Part shown: positions 8,377 through 52,715 of the stretch, in pieces
Layout: each line of letters starts with the position of its first letter
How positions within the stretch are numbered: position 1 is the stretch's first letter
IMG/VR virus record: IMGVR_UViG_3300020577_003668
Location: 41,546 to 105,545 of that record
DNA length: 64,000 nucleotides
Origin: a virus
Lineage: Duplodnaviria; Caudoviricetes
Direction: 5' to 3' (one strand)
Program-made: the position numbers and the translations under genes
Notes under the pieces: model-generated
What the model was told of the DNA's origin: nothing
Database searches by the model: none
The model's input: the letters and a program-made list of their open reading frames with translations, nothing else

Positions 8377-8456
8377 ACGACTGTACCTCAACGCTCTTCT
8401 AAAGCGTAGCAGAGTAAGTGGAGTCAATGTAGGTTCGAATCCTATCAGTCGTGCCA
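8377..8456 (+). tRNA. Atypical tRNA-Arg(UCU)-like RNA (no D arm before the anticodon arm)
   Basis: Acceptor acgactg/cagtcgt + GCCA; ASL acgct-CTTCTAA-agcgt only 7 nt after the acceptor; T arm gtagg-ttcgaat-cctat. Confidence 0.8.
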
Positions 8457-10638: not shown

Positions 10639-10836
10639 ATGGCTAGTGGATATACAAAAGACTTTCTAGTATCGGCTTTTCTAAGTCGATACTACTCGCT
10701 TCCAGAAGATAAGTTTGACGCACTGGAAAAGATGGCTAATAGTTTCTATGATGAAGTGGGGCGCGACAAGTTCCGCGTTTCGTGCTCTCTAGATGCTGAT
10801 GCTATCAAGACCGCTAAAAATTCTGGCTTGATCTGA
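10639..10836 (+). CDS. Hypothetical protein
   Basis: Coupled ORF. Confidence 0.7.
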   Translation: MASGYTKDFLVSAFLSRYYSLPEDKFDALEKMANSFYDEVGRDKFRVSCSLDADAIKTAKNSGLI

Positions 10837-10856
10837 TTGGTCTTTATCTATATAAT
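10828..10856 (+). promoter_or_regulatory. sigma70-type promoter heading a 1-kb non-coding block
   Basis: TTGATC-17-TATAAT. Confidence 0.8.
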
Positions 10857-10877: not shown

Positions 10878-11160
10878 AAGCCAAGCGCATAGATGTTATA
10901 TCGAACGTGTAACTCATAGCATTCCTATCCTACAGCCGTTACTGCTTAGGCTTGATTAAGCTGCTCCCTGACTTCGTGGAGTGAAAGTTGTCCTTAATGG
11001 GAGACTAAACCATTAAGTCTGAATACTACTAGAAGTAGTTTACGCAGAGAAACGAAACACTGCCACCTATAGGACACACGTATTTGTGTTCTTTGTGAGA
11101 GCATGATCCGATGGTATCTGTATCGCTAACTCTAACGCTGGCCAGCATAGTGTTCAGACT
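10878..11160 (+). ncRNA. Putative structured ncRNAs
   Basis: Closing stems aagcc/ggctt and aagtctgaatacta/tagtgttcagactt; ORF-free. Confidence 0.45.
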
Positions 11161-11164
11161 TAAT

Positions 11165-11251
11165 GGGACCCTTTCCTGCCGGGAGTCTGTAAAACTCTTG
11201 CTATATAAGGCGGGTTGGCTGCGTGAGGATCGAAACCTCGGGGGCCCACCA
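11165..11251 (+). tRNA. Atypical tRNA-Tyr(GUA)-like RNA (rearranged arms)
   Basis: gggaccc/ggggccc + ACCA; ASL gggagt-CTGTAAA-actctt nested in cctgcc/ggcggg; T arm tgagg-atcgaaa-cctcg. Confidence 0.8.
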
Positions 11252-11252
11252 G

Positions 11253-11528
11253 AATGTGGCTGTTGAATAGGGTGCCTTTACCGGCAATTCAACATAAGTG
11301 AGACTAACAATTGGCAGTGGACATGCCTTACAGCGCACGTTAGACCTTTCCTAGTTGAGCCCATTAGTTAAATCTAAGAGTTATGAGCATGTTACTTAGG
11401 ATCAAAACGGCTCGCCTGCCCCGGGCGCTATTCTAGATGTTCTCTAGGGGACGTATAGCAAGTACGAAGAAGTGCTCACCCGCTGGTTTAACGCGGTAAT
11501 CCAGCCCCAGGACGCGCGGTAACCTGGA
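11253..11528 (+). ncRNA. Putative structured ncRNA ending in a ccaggac..gtaacctgg hairpin
   Basis: ORF-free, multiple hairpins; 3' motif shared with 12634-12652. Confidence 0.5.
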
Positions 11529-11656
11529 ACTATAAATTAGTATACTTAGGCTATGCAGAGAATGTTATAAAGCCTAGTGACCACAAAGCTGGTAGTATAC
11601 TAACTTATAGTTAGAGAGTAATTAACTTTAACTGTAGCTGGGAGTCATGAACCTAG

Positions 11657-11753
11657 TGATCCGTGGTGATGAAATGGCAAACATAGGCCCCCGATAGGGT
11701 CGGCGTAGCTAAATAACGCTTGCAGGTATCGTAGTCCTGCCCACAATGGATCA
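11657..11753 (+). pseudogene. Degenerate type II tRNA-like RNA
   Basis: D arm gatgaaatggcaaacat, 6-nt anticodon loop ccgata, variable arm, enlarged T loop, closed tgatcc/ggatca end, no CCA. Confidence 0.6.
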
Positions 11754-11855
11754 ATTATATTTTAGCAGTTTACCTCTACCAGTCCAGCTGGCTCGGTAGG
11801 ATAAGTACGGATAAAGAAGAGGTCCGTGCCTGCTAAAATATAATTAGGAATAGTA

Positions 11856-12794: not shown

Positions 12795-12899
12795 CCCTGT
12801 ATTGCTAATATTGGTAAAGAGCGACCCTTATAAAGTCGTAGTAAGCACTCAATAGATAATTGAGCTTCAATCTTGGTTCGATTCCAAGTGCAGGGACCA
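12795..12899 (+). tRNA. tRNA-Ile(UAU) with very long variable arm
   Basis: ccctgta/tgcaggg + ACCA; loop CT-TAT-AA; ~33-nt variable region. Confidence 0.85.
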
Positions 12900-12970: not shown

Positions 12971-13561
12971 ATGTATACTAAAGAAATAGTCCCATTAAAG
13001 GGCCTAAAAGCTGGCTATGTAATATTCAGAGATCATAGCCACCCCTTAGCCTATGATGATGGCGCTGTATATTTGCACAGACATGTTGCAAGTATTAAGT
13101 TGGGGAGATGGGTTACAAGCGAAGAGTATGTTCATCATATTGATGAAAATAAGTTAAATAATGAACCTTATAATCTAGAAATACTATCTAACTCAGAGCA
13201 TAGTAAGATACATAATCCAAATAATTTAAGTAAGATTATTTGCCCAACATGTAAAAAAGAATTCCAACCCATTAGTTGCAAAATACAATATTGTTCTCCT
13301 AAATGTTACGCAGTAACAACTATTAAAAATACAAAGATAACAAAAGAATTATTAGATGAACTTATACCTAAGACTTCTTGGAGAGATTTAGGTAATATGT
13401 TTGGATATTCAGATAACGGAATAAAGAAGCGTGCTAAGGCTTTAGGGTGTGACACTTCTAATGCAAAGAATAAGCGAATGCCAGCTAGACCGAATGGGGG
13501 GTACACGCTTGATAAGCGTGCTGTACTTGGATCGAAACCAAGAGTTGGTACCAAAGGATAA
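12971..13561 (+). CDS. HNH homing endonuclease
   Basis: YLHRHVA..VHHIDENKLNN..NL..HSKIH plus CxxC..YCS..C. Confidence 0.92.
   Translation: MYTKEIVPLKGLKAGYVIFRDHSHPLAYDDGAVYLHRHVASIKLGRWVTSEEYVHHIDENKLNNEPYNLEILSNSEHSKIHNPNNLSKIICPTCKKEFQPISCKIQYCSPKCYAVTTIKNTKITKELLDELIPKTSWRDLGNMFGYSDNGIKKRAKALGCDTSNAKNKRMPARPNGGYTLDKRAVLGSKPRVGTKG
13480..13553 (+). tRNA. tRNA-Ile(GAU)
   Basis: gccagct/agttggt + ACCA; cacgc-TTGATAA-gcgtg. Confidence 0.88.
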
Positions 13562-13562
13562 T

Positions 13563-13645
13563 GCCCCTGTGACTTATGCAAATTGGCACAGCTACGAGTC
13601 TTAGAAGCTCGGTTTTTCCCGGTTCGAATCCGGGCGGGGGTACCA
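13563..13645 (+). tRNA. tRNA-Leu(UAG), short variable arm, extended acceptor-D linker
   Basis: gcccctg/cgggggt + ACCA; cgagt-CTTAGAA-gctcg. Confidence 0.88.
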
Positions 13646-17503: not shown

Positions 17504-17588
17504 TCCAAGGTGGCCAGAGTGGTAATGGTCCTCGCTGTTAACGAGATATGGTTAACTACCTTCGTAGGTTCGATCCCTACCCTTGGAG
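17504..17588 (+). tRNA. tRNA-Asn(GUU) with long variable arm, no encoded CCA
   Basis: tccaagg/ccttgga, G73; loop CT-GTT-AA; acceptor extended by agatatttgc/gcaaatatct. Confidence 0.88.
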
Positions 17589-17609
17589 CAAATATCTTTA
17601 GATACTACT

Positions 17610-20032: not shown

Positions 20033-21364
20033 ATGTCTAGCCTAAATCGTACTGTATATCGCCAAAATATTACTGGTGCCCAAATGGCCCAGAATCATCA
20101 CGGCCTGAAGGTTACTGCCCTATCTCCTGAAGCCAAGCTGACTCGCCTAACCATGGCGCACATGCTTTGGGAAAAGCAATTCTATGTTGACGGACAGAAG
20201 TCCGCCGACCTAATGGCGTCCCTTGTTACCAAGGTGTCACCATCGTTCGTGTCCAACCTGGCTCGCCAGGCGCGCGATAAGTTCAAGCTTCGTCACGTGC
20301 CTCTGCACCTGATGCGTTCACTTGCGAAGTCAGGCGCTCTCAAGGCGGCTGATCTAGCTGAAGTGATCCAACGTCCGGACGAACTTTCCGAGTTCGTTTC
20401 CCTTTACTGGGCCGACAAGAAGCAACCTCTGTCCAACCAGGTTAAGAAGGGTCTTGCACTTGCCTTTGGTAAGTTCAACGAATACCAACTTGCTAAGTGG
20501 GATAAGAACTCCGCAGTGGTATCGCTGCGCGACGTGATGTTCCTAGCACACCCAAAGCCTGCTAACGCAGAGCAAGCTGCCCTTTTCAAGAAGGTAGCAG
20601 ACCAAAAGCTAGAAACCCCTGATACTTGGGAAACCAATCTATCTGCGGGTGCGGATAAGAAGGCTACTTTTACCACCCTAATGCAGGATGGTAAGCTAGG
20701 TGCGCTTGCGTTCCTACGTAACCTTCGTAACATGGTGGAATCTGGTGTATCCGAATCTCTGATTCGTGATTACTCCAAGACAGTTAACACTGATCGTGTT
20801 CTACCTTTCCGTTTCCTTGCGGCAGCCCGCATTGTTCCTCAATTTGAGGACATGCTAGAAGCAATGATGTTCCGTTCCTGCGAAGGTATGGAAAAGCTGC
20901 CAGGCAAGACTAAGCTATACGTAGACGTTTCCGGCTCCATGTATACCCCTAAGGTTAGTGAAAAGTCCGACCTAACACGTCAGGATGCTTCGCTTGCCCT
21001 AGCTATTCTGTGTCGGGAACTATGCGAAGAAGTAGAAATCTACAGCTTCAGCGGAAAATCTCTACGTATTGCCCCTCGCCGAGGGTTTGCTCTAGCAGAC
21101 GCTATCAAGACCAGCCAAGGCTGCTCTGGTACTCAGCTAGGACATAGTCTGAAAGAAACCGAATCTAAAGCTGATCGCATCGTTGTAATCACTGATGAAC
21201 AATCTAGTGATATGCCTTCTGCTCCTTTTGGTGGAGCCAAGGGTTACCTAATCAACGTAGGTAGCTATCAGAACGGCGTTAACCATAACGCCTGGACTAG
21301 CATTACTGGCTTCTCCGAAGCTGTATTTAGCTATATCCAAATGTTCGAACGCGAAGGCGTTTAA
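20033..21364 (+). CDS. Ro60/Rsr-like TROVE + vWA domain RNA-binding protein
   Basis: LWEKQFY, LRHVP, QRPDEL, FNEYQLAKW, LRDVMFLAHPKP, TWET, LRNLRNM, LPFRF, MIDAS DVSGSM and ITDEQ. Confidence 0.95.
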   Translation: MSSLNRTVYRQNITGAQMAQNHHGLKVTALSPEAKLTRLTMAHMLWEKQFYVDGQKSADLMASLVTKVSPSFVSNLARQARDKFKLRHVPLHLMRSLAKSGALKAADLAEVIQRPDELSEFVSLYWADKKQPLSNQVKKGLALAFGKFNEYQLAKWDKNSAVVSLRDVMFLAHPKPANAEQAALFKKVADQKLETPDTWETNLSAGADKKATFTTLMQDGKLGALAFLRNLRNMVESGVSESLIRDYSKTVNTDRVLPFRFLAAARIVPQFEDMLEAMMFRSCEGMEKLPGKTKLYVDVSGSMYTPKVSEKSDLTRQDASLALAILCRELCEEVEIYSFSGKSLRIAPRRGFALADAIKTSQGCSGTQLGHSLKETESKADRIVVITDEQSSDMPSAPFGGAKGYLINVGSYQNGVNHNAWTSITGFSEAVFSYIQMFEREGV

Positions 21365-22369: not shown

Positions 22370-22704
22370 GATTGTCGTAATTCGGATCAAGCAGATGTGG
22401 GCCAGACGGGGCTTCGCCGCCCCCACCTCCACCAGTTAGTATAGAGTATAGATGCGCATCTAGTAATAGGCTAAGACCTAACAGAAATGTTCTCTGTACT
22501 AACTAATGGGGGTGAATATGTTTTCGATGGCGCAAATAAGTGAGATACGCGACACGGTAGGCGATGACCGTTAATCAAGCAAAACCTTTAAATGCAGCAA
22601 ACGATGCATACTTCGGAGAAGAACGCCTAGCGGCGTAATCCCGATGTAGGAGCTATCCTATATCAAACAAAATAGTTGGAGCGGCCCTGTCCATAAACAG
22701 GGCT
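22370..22704 (+). ncRNA. ssrA: Permuted two-piece tmRNA
   Basis: Acceptor piece ends cacctcc-A-CCA (22434); hairpin spacer; coding piece starts GGGGGTG (22508) with G3-U70; tag AANDAYFGEERLAA* at 22594-22638. Confidence 0.92.
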
Positions 22705-23999: not shown

Positions 24000-24070
24000 G
24001 AGTACGTTAGCTCAGTTGGCAGAGCGATAGCGACGGCATAGGTCAGGGGTTCGAATCCTCCTACGTACTC
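24000..24070 (+). pseudogene. tRNA-like RNA lacking a normal anticodon loop and CCA
   Basis: 8-bp stem gagtacgt/acgtactc; canonical D arm tagctcagttggcagagc and T loop ttcgaat; truncated anticodon arm. Confidence 0.7.
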
Positions 24071-29484: not shown

Positions 29485-30097
29485 ATGGATTATGCCTTAG
29501 ATATTTGTAATAAGTTAAACCTAGATCCTAATTTTGTATTAAAGAAAAAGATACGTGGATTAAGCGGAATAACCATTTATAGTTTAATACATGCTTTAAT
29601 ACATAATAGTTCAATTGCCGAGGCATCTAAATTTTTAGGGTATAGTGATAACCCTATTAAACAAGCAATTAGAAATATATTAAAGCCAATCTTTTCTAAC
29701 AGAAAAGAAAGTTTCTGTGATGGAGGTTCCCCAGAGTGGCGAAATACTTTACTATATACTATAGGATATAAACATTGCCCTAGTTGCAGTGATATATTGA
29801 GTATTGACCAATATACTAATGATTCTAGTAGTGCTACCGGTAAAACCTATAGATGTAGATTTTGCCTATTACTTAAATCTAAGGAAGAAAAGCAGTATAT
29901 AATACAACGAACCCCTGCTTGGAGCGAGATTGATTTAATAGCAAAATTCTATAAAAATTGTCCGAAAGGGTATCATGTAGATCATGACTTACCCCCTAAG
30001 AGGGGAACTAGTATCAGGATTGCACGTATTATCTAATTTAAGATATTTACCTGCACTAGAGAATATTAGTAAGGGTAATAAATTTAATATAAGCTGA
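29485..30097 (+). pseudogene. HNH homing endonuclease, frameshifted in a C5 run near 29992-29996
   Basis: Paralog of 13706-14329; the alternate frame continues LRGELVSGLHVLSNLRYL..ENISKGNKF. Confidence 0.85.
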
Positions 30098-30175
30098 AGT
30101 CCCATAGCGGCGATTGGAACGGTTTTGTAAGCCGTTATAAAAACATCGTGAGTTCGAGTCTCACCTTCAGCACCA
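30093..30175 (+). tRNA. tRNA-Thr(UGU)
   Basis: gctgaag/cttcagc + ACCA; acggt-TTTGTAA-gccgt; enlarged variable loop. Confidence 0.9.
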
Positions 30176-41002: not shown

Positions 41003-42019
41003 AGCCCGATCAAGTCTTGCCCTCTTAATAAGTAATTATTAAGTAATTAAACTCGCTCAATTGCTGGAAGGCCTTCGGGATAATCAGCAGCCAGAATAGG
41101 TAGGAATACTTATAAATGGTTCAGAGACTGACAGTATTTCCAGAACGGAAATAGCTGCGATACTAGAAATAGTATAACACGGCGAGCATCTTTTACGTAT
41201 TCAATCCACATATGGGAATACAACATGAATGAATTAACAAAAGAATATTTTCTATCTCTAAGAGAACAAGGTCTAACTTTTAAACAAATAGGAGAACTAT
41301 TTGGGTTAACGGAGAGACAAGTCAACTATAGAACAGTTAATAAATGGGGTTTAGATTATTCAAAGAAGAAAAAACTAAATGAGTTCTTCTTTAGTAGTGG
41401 TACTAAAGCTTCCTATTATTGGGCAGGTATGCTGGCTGCGGATGGTTGGATAGAGGGAGATAGGAATAGAATTGGTTTAGCTTTACAGAAACAAGATATA
41501 GATCATTTATATAAGTTTAAGGAAGCAGTATCTTCAGAACACGATGTATGCCCATTCATGAATGGTAGTGCATATAGAATTAGATTTAATAGTATACAAA
41601 TGGTGGAAGATTTAAAAAATATTTTTAATATTACACCAGCAAAGACGCATACTTATAGTATGCCTTTATTCGAAGATACTTATCTAATGTTAGAATTCCT
41701 TAGAGGATATATAGATGGAGATGGTCACTTACAGAAAACGGATTCTGGTAAAGTAGCACTACATCTTTGTTCTGCTAATAGATTATTTCTGGTAGAGTTT
41801 AAAGAAATATGTGAATACCTACTAGCTAGAACTATTAACCAAGAAGTAAATCTTAATGTTAATTCAAAAGGACAGGTATATACTATCAGATTAGTTTTGG
41901 AGGATAGCAAAGAAATTATAAAACTTCTTTATGCTAATTCTACGGAAAAAACTAGATTAAATAGAAAATATATAACCGCTTTATGTGTATTAAAAGATGA
42001 AGGTATAGTCCAATAAAAG
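41003..42019 (+). mobile_element. Group I intron (IA2-like) in the D10 helicase gene
   Basis: Exon ends in U, intron ends in G; IGS gtctt-gccct (41014-41023) pairs both exons; P aattgctggaa, Q aatcagcag, R gttcagagact, S aaggtatagtcc. Confidence 0.93.
41225..42016 (+). CDS. Intron-encoded LAGLIDADG homing endonuclease
   Basis: WAGMLAADG and FLRGYIDGDG motifs. Confidence 0.93.
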   Translation: MNELTKEYFLSLREQGLTFKQIGELFGLTERQVNYRTVNKWGLDYSKKKKLNEFFFSSGTKASYYWAGMLAADGWIEGDRNRIGLALQKQDIDHLYKFKEAVSSEHDVCPFMNGSAYRIRFNSIQMVEDLKNIFNITPAKTHTYSMPLFEDTYLMLEFLRGYIDGDGHLQKTDSGKVALHLCSANRLFLVEFKEICEYLLARTINQEVNLNVNSKGQVYTIRLVLEDSKEIIKLLYANSTEKTRLNRKYITALCVLKDEGIVQ

Positions 42020-49782: not shown

Positions 49783-50206
49783 GCACATATGCTAGTAGTG
49801 CTAGTCAGATGTACTTAACATTAGAGACTCTTGTGCAAAATGCAGTAAAGAATAGCGGCGAACGTAAAGTATTAATTGGGAAGATGATGAATGCTTTGAA
49901 TAAAACCGCGGAGGAGATGATAAATTTAATAGGTTTATTAAATTTGGTAGATTCATATATTATACAGGATAACATTACATGACTAAACATATTCATATTA
50001 TTAATGCAGATTCATCTTCTTGGAAAGTAAAAGTACTGATACAAGATAAGTGGTTTAAGTTCGATGAAGATGGGAAAGTACTACCATGGGATAATACTTG
50101 GAAAACTGTAGAAACTATTGCACTAAGTAATCCTGGCCAGTTATTAACGAAGTATATCACTAATAGTAGACGTTTAGTAATTGAGGAAGATGGTGTAAAT
50201 ACATGA
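49779..50206 (+). CDS. Two short hypothetical ORFs (49779-49982, 49979-50206)
   Basis: Chain of ATGA overlaps between dut and nrdJ. Confidence 0.65.
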
Positions 50207-51540
50207 TTGATGGGGTGTATGAAACATTCATTGCTAAGTCTAGATACGCAAGATATTTAGACGAAGAGGCCAGGCGAGAAAATTGGTCGGAAACTACTAA
50301 CCGATATCTAGAATTCATACAAGAACACCTTCTAGAAAAGCACGAATATCTTATCCCTGAAGATGTCCTGGAAGAACTACGGGGTGCTATTCTTAACAAC
50401 GAAGTATATCCTAGTATGCGTGCATTGATGACTGCTGGTGAAGCTCTGGAGCGAGATAATACCGCGGGATTCAATTGTTCTTACTTGCCTGTTGATGATA
50501 TTAAATCATTCGACGAAGCAATGTATATCCTTATGTGCGGCGTTGGCGTGGGCTTCAGCGTGGAAAGGCAGTATATTTGTAAGCTTCCAGAAGTACCAGA
50601 TAGAATCTATCCTTCCGAGAGCTATATCATGGTACACGACTCTAAGGAAGGCTGGGCTAAAGCGCTACGACAACTCATTGCCTTACTGTATTCTGGTGAA
50701 GCTGCCAAATGGGATGTTAGTGAGGTTAGACCTGCAGGCGCAAGACTTAAAACTTTTGGAGGCCGCTCTTCAGGACCAGGTCCTTTGGTCGACTTATTTA
50801 GATTCGTTACAAAAATATTTAAAGGCGCGACAGGACGAAAACTAACCTCCCTAGAATGTCATGATATCATGTGCAAGATCGGCGAAGTTGTTGTAGTTGG
50901 CGGTGTTCGCCGATCCGCAATGATCTCGCTATCTAATCTGTCTGATGATCGTATGCGTCATGCTAAGTCAGGTGCATGGTGGGAGGCTAATCCACAACGT
51001 GCTTTAGCAAATAACAGTGCTTGCTATACTGAACGTCCTGAAGTGGGCGTATTTATGCAGGAGTGGTTATCTCTATATGAGTCAAAGTCTGGTGAAAGAG
51101 GAATCTTTAATAGAGAAGCAGCTACTAAAGTGGCTGCTAGGAACGGACGAAGAGAAACGGAAGGGCATGAATTTGGCACTAATCCATGTTCCGAAATTAT
51201 CTTACGGCCATATCAGTTTTGCAACCTATCAACAAGCGTTGTAAGAGCTACAGATACACGAGAGGATTTACTTAGGAAAGTCCGTCTAGCAGCGATATTT
51301 GGTACGTATCAGTCCACTCTAACTAATTTTCCTTACTTAAGAAAAATCTGGCAAAAGAATACAGAGGAAGAGCGTCTATTAGGCGTTTCAATGACTGGAC
51401 CTCTAGATAATCCCCTGCTTAATAATCCAGATGATCCTGGGTTAGAGAAATTACTAGAAGAGCTGAAAGCTGAAGCTGTACGCGTCAACAAGGTGCTTGC
51501 CATGCAAATTGGCATTCCTCAGGCGACGGCTGTAACGGCT
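50203..51540 (+). CDS. nrdJ: Class II (B12-dependent) ribonucleotide reductase, exon 1
   Basis: PSMRAL, NCSY, GGVRRSA, TNPCSEI, FCNL; ends ATAVTA. Confidence 0.94.
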
Positions 51541-52715
51541 TAACAAAATTTAGACTTGAAATTTTTCAACAACTGTTATATAATTATTATACTGGTATAA
51601 AAATACAGGAATAATAAAATGATAGATGTAGAAAAAGTATTAAATGAATATGGTATTGACAAGGCTAGAGACCTATTTTTAAGAGAAGGATATACTCTTA
51701 CTCAGTTTCATTTAGAAACTAAATTAAGTACTAGTAAAAATAGAACTTCGCAGAGAGTGTATGAAGAAGTATATAGAATACTCGGTATTACCGAGATTCC
51801 TTATAAAGAAGATACACAGCCTGTTAGAAAATTTAAATTAGAATTTGATAGAGTCTCCGGCAAGTACTGGGAGTCTGACTATATAGTAGAGGTTCTACTA
51901 GATAAGCTACAAAATCCAATACTTAATAAGGCGGAGAATAGAGAGAGATACGTAATAGGTTTCCCTAAACACCCTAATTCGGATCCTACGTCTAATCAAA
52001 TTAAAGCACATATTGTTCAATGGGAAATATTAAATGAACAATATGTGCCTAGTAATCATTGGGTAATACCCGTAGATGATGATTATACTAACTTAGATAT
52101 GGATAACTGGGTTTTGGTAAATACGACCGAATTTAAGTCAGATAGATTTACCAGTGAAGGTAACCCTTCATATAAGCACGGAAAATCAGGAAGACATAAG
52201 TTAGGCGGCTGGGCGTTAATTAGTAAAAATAGTATTAATAAGCATAGATTCTGTACAAGATGTAATACAGATAAAGGTTTAATAGTGCATCATATTATTA
52301 ACTATCATCTATTTACTAATCCCATGGAAGCGCATAATATAGATAATTTATTAGTATTATGCCAAAGTTGTCATGCCAAAATACATCTAACTAATCTAAA
52401 TATAAAGGCCCTTATTGAGGAAACTCAATATAGCAAATTACTTAAATTGCTGGAAACTCTCAAGAGCCAAGTTCCAGACTCCATGAAGGAAACTTACGTG
52501 GACGTAGAAAAGCAACTTGGACTAACAGACAATCAGCAGCCAAGCACCTAAAGAAAAGTATCTAAGGTGAAGGTTCAACGACTATCCATTTATGGAGTAG
52601 GACCGAAGACGGTTCGAAAAAGGTAATACCCTATTAATTATGGGTAATGATATAGTCTGAGCTATATAGAAATATATAGAGAGAATACGGAATCGGTATT
52701 CTCGTAACATAACTG
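51541..52715 (+). mobile_element. Group I intron in nrdJ
   Basis: Exon ends in U, intron ends in G; P aaattgctggaa, Q aatcagcagcc, R gttcaacgacta, S atgatatagtct; splicing restores AVTA|IKPEGT. Confidence 0.93.
51619..52551 (+). CDS. Intron-encoded HNH endonuclease
   Basis: CTRC..VHHI..NLLVLCQSCHAKIH; the 3' end runs through the P and Q elements. Confidence 0.9.
   Translation: MIDVEKVLNEYGIDKARDLFLREGYTLTQFHLETKLSTSKNRTSQRVYEEVYRILGITEIPYKEDTQPVRKFKLEFDRVSGKYWESDYIVEVLLDKLQNPILNKAENRERYVIGFPKHPNSDPTSNQIKAHIVQWEILNEQYVPSNHWVIPVDDDYTNLDMDNWVLVNTTEFKSDRFTSEGNPSYKHGKSGRHKLGGWALISKNSINKHRFCTRCNTDKGLIVHHIINYHLFTNPMEAHNIDNLLVLCQSCHAKIHLTNLNIKALIEETQYSKLLKLLETLKSQVPDSMKETYVDVEKQLGLTDNQQPST

Follow-up and report, generated by a model that had tools for sequence, protein, structure and literature searches.

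The closest described counterpart of the RNA gene considered here is the canonical class II tyrosine transfer RNA (tRNA-Tyr) with anticodon GUA, as represented by tyrT and tyrU of Escherichia coli, T5t22 of phage T5 and the Rfam tRNA family RF00005. The gene occupies positions 11165-11251 on the + strand of a 64,000-nucleotide (nt) window, by which we mean the whole stretch of viral DNA that was analysed (positions 41,546 to 105,545 of IMG/VR record IMGVR_UViG_3300020577_003668). Like canonical tRNA-Tyr, this RNA and its relatives have a 7-base-pair (bp) acceptor stem with G1-C72, A73 and CCA, an anticodon loop with U33, GUA and A37, a T arm with a UCGA core, and a helix that follows the anticodon stem and ends before the T stem, and they share its length range (84-93 nt) and its location in tRNA arrays. 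Unlike canonical tRNA-Tyr, they carry the D-stem partner strand and the accompanying GG inside the loop of the variable arm, behind the anticodon arm. We propose that the gene is probably the phage's tyrosine tRNA, and that it belongs to a phage-borne class II tRNA-Tyr(GUA) family with a rewired core.

Several other groups of unusual RNAs share part of this design. The D-armless mitochondrial tRNAs, such as metazoan mitochondrial tRNA-Ser(AGY) and the minimal tRNAs of nematodes and mites, also lack a D hairpin and are also missed by standard finders. These tRNAs are functional in translation at about 50-65 nt, with the D helix simply gone and with mitochondrial factors that have co-evolved with them, whereas the phage RNAs have normal length, rebuild the D helix from distant strands and would face a bacterial apparatus. 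The tyrosine-accepting tRNA-like structure of the brome mosaic virus type and other viral mimics use pseudoknots to imitate tRNA shape, and they can be tyrosylated. Those structures, however, stand at the 3′ ends of RNA genomes, have a pseudoknotted acceptor and do no decoding, while the present RNA has an ordinary acceptor stem, carries a true anticodon loop and is encoded by a free-standing gene in a DNA phage.

The Y RNAs of the YrlA type are likewise not cloverleaves, and YrlA mimics the acceptor/T/D elbow. The phage also encodes a protein of the Ro60/TROVE type: the open reading frame (ORF) at 20033-21364 (+), about 8 kilobases (kb) from the tyrosine RNA and amid the tRNA region, contains TROVE and Ro60 vWA domains. 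YrlA has neither an anticodon arm nor a CCA-ended acceptor, however, and the tyrosine RNA has the full set of tyrosine identity features.

The remaining comparison is with 8/4 and 9/3 tRNAs, which include tRNA-Sec, the allo-tRNAs and the 8/4 tRNA-Ser and tRNA-His of alphaproteobacterial phages (Mukai et al. 2017, PMC5389517). Most members of the present family resemble them in having an 8-bp acceptor stem, a T stem of 3-4 bp and 12 stacked pairs, and in occurring in phage tRNA clusters; the best Rfam match of two family members is indeed tRNA-Sec, below threshold. The 8/4 and 9/3 tRNAs nevertheless remain cloverleaves with a D arm, and neither a tyrosine species nor long-range D pairing is described in that work (PMC5389517). 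A 2024 paper considers all known bacterial tRNAs to be cloverleaves (PMC11551756). Given that our literature search found no published description of a rewired, pseudoknotted tRNA-Tyr, this phage-borne class is apparently undescribed.

Architecture of the RNA at 11165-11251

The initial annotation had read this locus as a rearranged tRNA-Tyr(GUA)-like RNA, and inspection of the sequence located every element it had listed, namely G1-C72, A73, the GUA anticodon, CCA, the long-range helix (helix X below), the TTGG element and the T arm. The short variable-arm helix (helix V below), the possible eighth acceptor pair and the existence of a widespread family had gone unremarked there. The gene is 87 bases long, and its parts are as follows.

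11165-11171 (+), acceptor stem, 5′ strand, positions 1-7; pairs with 11241-11247, as read from the sequence
11172 (+), U11172; possible eighth acceptor pair with G11240
11173-11174 (+), UU linker in the place of U8/N9; at least 70% conserved in the family, the second U at least 90%
11175-11180 (+), long-range helix X, 5′ strand, CCUGCC, in place of a D-stem strand; pairs with 11209-11214
11181 (+), junction G, like position 26; may pair with U11199, extending the anticodon stem
11182-11198 (+), anticodon arm with 5-bp stem, 7-nt loop, U33 and A37, as read from the sequence
11199-11201 (+), variable-arm helix V, 5′ strand; pairs with 11221-11223, just 2-3 bp in this member
11202-11208 (+), A/U-rich linker within the variable-arm loop; 7-16 nt and A/U-rich in all family members
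11209-11214 (+), long-range helix X, 3′ strand, GGCGGG, inside the variable-arm loop; supported by covariation, RNAalifold and a sister strain
11215-11220 (+), UUGGCU, with UUGG at 11215-11218 and GG at 11217-11218; the GG is invariant in the family
11221-11223 (+), variable-arm helix V, 3′ strand; supported by covariation in the family
11225-11239 (+), T arm; 4-bp stem of 11225-11228 with 11236-11239, and a 7-nt loop
11240-11251 (+), G11240 (eighth acceptor or fifth T pair), acceptor 3′ strand at 11241-11247, A73 at 11248 and CCA at 11249-11251, as read from the sequence

The 7-bp acceptor stem begins with G1-C72 and has one A.G mismatch, at its fourth pair. The anticodon stem is formed by 11182-11186 with 11194-11198 and closes the loop 11187-11193, in which GUA lies at 11189-11191. 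The T stem has 4 bp, or 5 if G11240 is used, and the T loop has A in place of U at its first position followed by UCGA, the family consensus being normal at this point.

The initial annotation had also stated that the RNA lacks a D arm, and this proved correct. The acceptor and anticodon stems are just 10 nt apart, which leaves no D hairpin between positions 9 and 26 and no loop with G18 G19 there; the partner strand and the GG sit 3′ of the anticodon arm. There is a candidate variable-arm stem in the class II position, of just 2-3 possible pairs in the window RNA, and its loop of 18-25 nt holds the D-like strand, which sets it apart from every class II tRNA. Helix V, clear in the family and short here, crosses helix X, and the family fold is thereby pseudoknotted instead of a cloverleaf. 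Standard tools do not recognize the gene: ARAGORN, run with default settings, with lowered thresholds and with introns allowed, reported nothing at 11165-11251, and the Rfam models, RF00005 included, gave no match there even at E ≤ 10.

Covariation and range of the family

An exact search of IMG/VR with the anticodon arm returned mostly ordinary tRNA-Tyr genes, together with five loci that have the same odd layout and differ from one another in the sequences of the long-range helix. A pattern derived from these five led to about 75 further loci. The search patterns fixed the GUA loop, the UGGUU motif and the T loop, so that the conservation of those three motifs is partly by construction; the helices were left unconstrained, and the pattern does not capture the window RNA. 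The family so defined contains at least 57 distinct sequences from phage contigs. We analyzed it in a MAFFT alignment (A1) of 52 distinct family sequences plus the window RNA, and in a second alignment (A2) of 57 family sequences, with the window RNA left out, from which the covariance model R2 was built.

The helices proved to be maintained by compensatory change. In A1, 92.6% of cells are paired, against 66% in shuffles, and both partners have changed at 25 of the 27 pairs; a covariation score of 0.70 was obtained, where shuffles gave 0.20 and sliding the partners gave no more than 0.14. The model alignment gives the same covariation picture. For helix X, all six pairs show changes on both sides, and pairing amounts to 90.9% in the MAFFT alignment and 97.7% in that of the model. 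The anticodon stem is 99.6% paired with all five pairs co-varying, the acceptor pairs are 99% paired and all of them co-vary, and the two inner T-stem pairs are formed in every family sequence. Helix V, whose pairs were counted on A1 only, has 3-5 bp in the family, is about 85% paired and shows both-side changes at three of its four pairs; it starts directly after the anticodon stem, ends just before the T stem, and encloses both the 3′ strand of X and the conserved UGGUU. Without any structural input, RNAalifold predicts helix X along with the acceptor and anticodon stems, and it also joins alignment columns 17 and 35, for the most part by a G.U pair, which is the basis for the possible pair between 11181 and 11199.

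The family also retains the dimensions and identity positions of a tyrosine tRNA. The acceptor/T branch is of the 8/4 type in most members, where an eighth acceptor pair replaces the fifth T pair, and 7/5 in a minority, and the stack stays at about 12 pairs throughout. This eighth pair is formed, by four pair types, in every family sequence that has the base. Twelve pairs is the acceptor/T length that EF-Tu reads, and stacks of about this size are also known from other atypical phage tRNAs (PMC5389517). Of the 53 aligned sequences, 51 have G1-C72, the discriminator column (96) is A in at least 90%, and the Us flanking the GG are at least 90% conserved in A1. We consider the GG at 11217-11218 a likely stand-in for G18 G19 of the D loop, by which it would make the elbow contact.

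Although the window RNA had been left out of R2, a search of the whole genome with this model scored 11165-11248 at 57.9 bits (E = 2.7e-14). The next match was the Arg(UCU) RNA discussed below, at 21 bits, and ordinary tRNAs scored 17.9 bits or less. The nearest relatives (L060, L066 and L093) have the same UUGG form and a 5-bp V helix. By the score of this model, the window RNA genuinely belongs to the rewired tRNA-Tyr family. T5 tRNA-Tyr, which we considered as a further member, was rejected: it has a normal D arm, folds as an ordinary cloverleaf and scores only about 22 bits on the family model.

Evidence at the locus itself comes from a sister strain, whose allele is present in contigs from three sequencing runs of three studies. 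Exactly four differences separate the two alleles over 11160-11251, and they fall into two pairs. In helix X, C>A at 11179 accompanies G>T at 11210, turning a C-G pair into A-U, and in the anticodon stem G>T at 11183 accompanies C>A at 11197, turning a G-C pair into U-A. The similarity begins about 5 bases before G1 (at about 11159-11160) and ends exactly at the CCA (11251), and the flanks are unrelated. Four compensatory differences within such sharp borders mark a discrete RNA gene whose structure is under selection. On this comparative evidence the gene is a genuine member of a family under selection.

Other anticodons occur on the same architecture, if rarely: UCG (Arg) in L037 and UAU in G029. 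L037, a 155-kb phage, carries a rewired tyrosine RNA and an RNA with the Arg-UCG loop about 320 nt apart, at L037:240-321 (-) and L037:642-727 (-), and the latter scores 41.5 bits on the tyrosine model, so that in this phage the design has apparently been reused for another anticodon. Like the window RNA, the other members escape routine detection. ARAGORN found none of 55 family sequences run on their own and called two copies only in their genome context, with wrong borders; in Rfam, other members received sub-threshold scores of 23.5-26.8 bits for tRNA or 23.6-28.6 bits for tRNA-Sec.

Beyond metagenomes, blastn of the region, the RNA and a typical member against 50,697 GenBank phages returned no match. 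The family model nevertheless finds a 95-nt member in the cultured Bacteroides phage crAss001 (MH675552, 4141-4235 (+); locus L273:2542-2636), which shows that the blastn null reflects a limit of sensitivity. This copy is unannotated and lies in a gap between tRNA-Lys and tRNA-Phe; among the annotated genes t1-t23 of the array there is no tRNA-Tyr, and the published description of the genome credits it with tRNAs for 17 amino acids (PMC6235969). In a set of 185,579 bacterial and archaeal species genomes, 2 of the 80 loci among the matches listed were real members, both on short contigs of metagenome-assembled genomes, and we therefore treat the family as phage-borne.

The tyrosine slot and the surrounding genome

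The window is the right-hand part of a complete virus record of 105,545 bp whose ends carry direct terminal repeats. Its DNA polymerase shares 47% identity with those of T5-like Vibrio phages, and by this sequence measure the phage is T5-like. Its DNA has been seen in metagenomes of at least eight studies, from river, wastewater and activated sludge.

All tRNA genes of the genome are on the + strand and within window positions 109-30175. According to ARAGORN and Rfam no canonical tRNA-Tyr is among those in the window, in agreement with the initial annotation, which had called the rearranged RNA the only tyrosine tRNA there. That annotation had named a canonical tRNA-Tyr elsewhere in the genome as one part of what would count against it, and the complete 105,545-bp genome contains none. 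Manual typing of what ARAGORN and Rfam detected in the genome gave a tRNA for every amino acid except tyrosine, 19 in total.

The same vacancy recurs among other carriers. At the 74 family loci examined, the RNA lies nearly always within a tRNA array, where it occupies a tRNA-sized gap between neighbouring tRNA genes. Fifteen loci hold 20 tRNAs or more; among them a canonical tyrosine tRNA occurs at one, and any other amino acid is represented at 11-15. Five near-complete carrier genomes have no canonical tRNA-Tyr among all their Rfam tRNA sites, and in one near-complete carrier genome, with 27 tRNAs, tyrosine alone is missing. A 103-kb complete phage with terminal repeats (G037; locus L147, 52300-53200) has, besides the rewired tyrosine RNA, only tRNAs for Leu(UAG), Leu(UAA), Ser(GCU), Ser(UGA) and Ile(UAU), which is essentially a set confined to class II. 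A gene of the tyrosyl-tRNA synthetase (TyrRS) type (PF00579) was absent from 37 of 38 carrier records and found in one; as the phage encodes no TyrRS, a host enzyme would have to charge the RNA.

The claim of the initial annotation that the tyrosine RNA and its companion Arg(UCU) RNA fill real decoding slots is thus strengthened for tyrosine by structure-preserving selection, a retained tyrosine identity set, a tRNA-gene setting and an amino acid otherwise uncovered, all of which point to decoding from the genomic side. As to the companion, comparison with its relatives established that it is real and that it belongs to a second rewired family. Its layout is given here on one line.

8377-8456 (+), rewired tRNA-Arg(UCU): acceptor, UA, CUC, anticodon arm, linker, GAG, D-loop-like stretch with GG, T arm, G73 and CCA

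This RNA scores 38.3 bits as an Rfam tRNA (8377-8453), is missed by ARAGORN and has no D hairpin. Its long-range pairing joins CUC at 8387-8389 to GAG at 8412-8414; a CCUC/GGAG pairing considered for it was dropped, since the alignment with relatives supports CUC/GAG. In twenty hand-picked relatives the 3-bp long-range helix is 95% paired, with both-side changes at all three pairs. The helix joins the strand after U8-A9 to a strand behind the anticodon arm, and after that second strand comes a D-loop-like stretch containing GG. At least 119 viral contigs have a UCU loop at an abnormal spacing to a T loop.

The immediate surroundings of the tyrosine RNA contain little else. About 900 nt around it (10960-11855) are without any ORF longer than 51 amino acids; a sigma-70-like promoter site lies at 10828-10856, about 310 nt upstream, and no terminator was found nearby.

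Several neighbouring tRNA genes have peculiarities of their own. The 102-nt tRNA at 12795-12896 (+) has a D arm, a very long variable arm, C1-G72 and A73; UAU stands where the anticodon would be, in a loop that can be read as 9 nt or, if a C.A pair is allowed to close it, as 7 nt, and the RNA scores 35.2 bits in Rfam while being missed by ARAGORN. In another phage, the RNA at G029:22905-22993, a rewired RNA of the tyrosine type, has the same UAU loop and C1-G72. ARAGORN called tRNA-Ile(GAU) at 13480-13553 (+) and tRNA-Leu(UAG) at 13572-13645 (+) only at lowered thresholds. The former overlaps the 3′ end of the HNH endonuclease ORF at 12971-13561 and shares with the tyrosine RNA an A at the first position of the T loop; the latter has a poor acceptor stem. 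Long variable regions, unusual for class I, occur in tRNA-Asn(GUU) at 17504-17589 (+), of 86 nt, and in tRNA-Thr(UGU) at 30093-30175 (+), of 83 nt, and there is a comparable long tRNA-Asn in a contig of the family (L047:1908-1994). A tRNA-like sequence at 24001-24069 (+) has good acceptor, D and T arms and no convincing anticodon stem, and it scores exactly at the Rfam threshold (29 bits).

Among other RNA features, the phage encodes a circularly permuted, two-piece transfer-messenger RNA at 22373-22638 (+) (Rfam RF04321, 96.7 bits), a type known from alphaproteobacteria, some betaproteobacteria and cyanobacteria and therefore a hint to the host of the phage. A group I intron at 52387-52679 (+) (Rfam, 79.6 bits) overlaps the end of the ORF at 51619-52551, and a ribonucleotide reductase-like ORF (50203-51543) adjoins that locus.

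Proposed function and its alternatives

We consider it probable that 11165-11251 encodes the tyrosine tRNA of this phage, and we would extend nearly the same confidence to its working as a tyrosine adaptor. In its topology, the 5′ strand of X continues into the anticodon stem through a single base, as the 3′ strand of a D stem does, and the 3′ strand of X leads into GG, as the 5′ strand of a D stem leads into the D loop. Helix X could then stack on the anticodon stem at the usual site of the D stem, and the GG could dock on the T loop to form the elbow, giving an L shape with altered strand connectivity. The RNA would presumably be cut from its transcript like the neighbouring tRNAs, charged by the host TyrRS and used by the ribosome at UAU and UAC codons.

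A number of observations weigh against this reading, in addition to the partial circularity of motif conservation mentioned above. The folding energy of the single sequence is no better than that of shuffles (z = +0.46), and the window RNA is a weak member of its family, with the A.G acceptor mismatch, the odd A in the T loop and a V helix of only 2-3 bp. About one in ten family loci also has a canonical tRNA-Tyr alongside, so replacement is not absolute. Contigs that cover the gene do occur in two RNA-library runs, but contigs are silent on transcription, ends and strand, and carry-over of DNA is possible.

Given the misses by tRNA finders and the non-significant single fold, the sequence taken alone could be a wreck, and decay of a tRNA gene into a pseudogene, with the D arm deleted and the apparent long-range helix due to chance, would also account for the acceptor mismatch. 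The at least 57 distinct relatives that keep every helix via compensatory change, the four sister-strain differences, all of them compensatory, and the E value obtained with the window RNA left out of the model make this the least credible of the explanations we weighed, with hardly any room left for it. If the gene is intact, it might still serve no adaptor function and act as a tRNA-like processing or regulatory element, either as punctuation for RNase P or RNase Z or as part of a longer noncoding RNA in 10960-11855. The long stretch without sizeable ORFs, the promoter-like site upstream and the missing terminator would suit such an element, and the T5 annotation does include "tRNA-like stable RNAs with unknown functions". 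Sister strains, however, conserve 11160-11251 only and differ in the flanks, the RNA sits among tRNA genes at tRNA spacing in other phages, and a conserved tyrosine anticodon loop with its identity bases would be needless; we regard this option as very unlikely.

Two further alternatives grant the RNA a tRNA-like role. It might be a working tRNA with a GUA anticodon that is charged with another amino acid, for example serine or leucine, following the loss of a class II core, given that class II tRNAs are told apart in part by how the variable arm is oriented (PMC9976931), and that this orientation is altered here. Yet G1-C72, A73 and G34/U35, the main bacterial tyrosine determinants, are retained, misreading of tyrosine codons would be costly, and tyrosine is the very amino acid missing from the remaining set, so that mischarging seems a more remote prospect than a processing role. 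A better case, if still an unlikely one, can be made for a tRNA-Tyr mimic that acts outside translation, as a decoy or sponge that captures a host factor directed at tRNA-Tyr, be it TyrRS, a nuclease of the PtuAB type or some other tRNase, and thereby shields or manipulates the host pool. When phage tRNA-Tyr is overexpressed, the toxicity of PtuAB is neutralised and host tRNA-Tyr is partly protected (PMC12673091, PMC13096335); canonical and rewired copies occur together in some phages, which suggests that they are not equivalent, and the core is so heavily altered that use by the ribosome is a presumption. A decoy role nonetheless leaves the specific lack of canonical tRNA-Tyr in otherwise complete phage sets unexplained, and it would need neither the 12-pair acceptor/T length nor G1-C72, A73 and an encoded CCA.

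If the RNA is a tyrosine tRNA, as we favour, the question is why a phage would keep one with such a core, and here the suggestion of the initial annotation that the RNA might be nuclease-resistant becomes relevant. Septu and the PtuAB proteins of retron-Eco7 cleave tRNA-Tyr in the variable arm (PMC13096335, PMC12673091), the Septu cut site being C48/A49, and the tRNA-Tyr of T5-family phages escapes by its variable loop (PMC12673091, PMC13096335, PMC11555353). By analogy, the rewired design might persist by removing or burying the normal variable arm, the target of PtuAB-type enzymes, and the phage could then go on translating once host tRNA-Tyr had been destroyed. We put this rationale forward tentatively, as possible and somewhat improbable, and the link rests on E. 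coli systems, which may not be those of the phage's host; this too counts against the fuller picture. In its widest form, that picture has a natural non-cloverleaf tRNA, kept by phages time and again, working on bacterial ribosomes, with a D helix that spans the anticodon arm in the tyrosine RNA and in the arginine RNA of the second family, and with the tyrosine design escaping PtuAB-type cutting; all of these together we hold to be doubtful. It is plausible, again by analogy, that the pseudoknotted variable arm is an extreme of an arms race with nucleases that attack tRNA-Tyr.

For the debate on why phages carry tRNAs, the rewired tRNA-Tyr offers a concrete case that bears on escape from tRNA-cutting defences, and it is a natural scaffold for the engineering of orthogonal tRNAs. 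If our reading is true, phage tRNA sets are systematically under-annotated, as exemplified by crAss001, whose unannotated copy sits in a gap of its array and provides a cultured system that carries the rewired RNA. If these RNAs are charged and decoded, then RNase P, the CCA-adding and modification enzymes, TyrRS, EF-Tu and the ribosome would all accept a tRNA with a pseudoknotted core.

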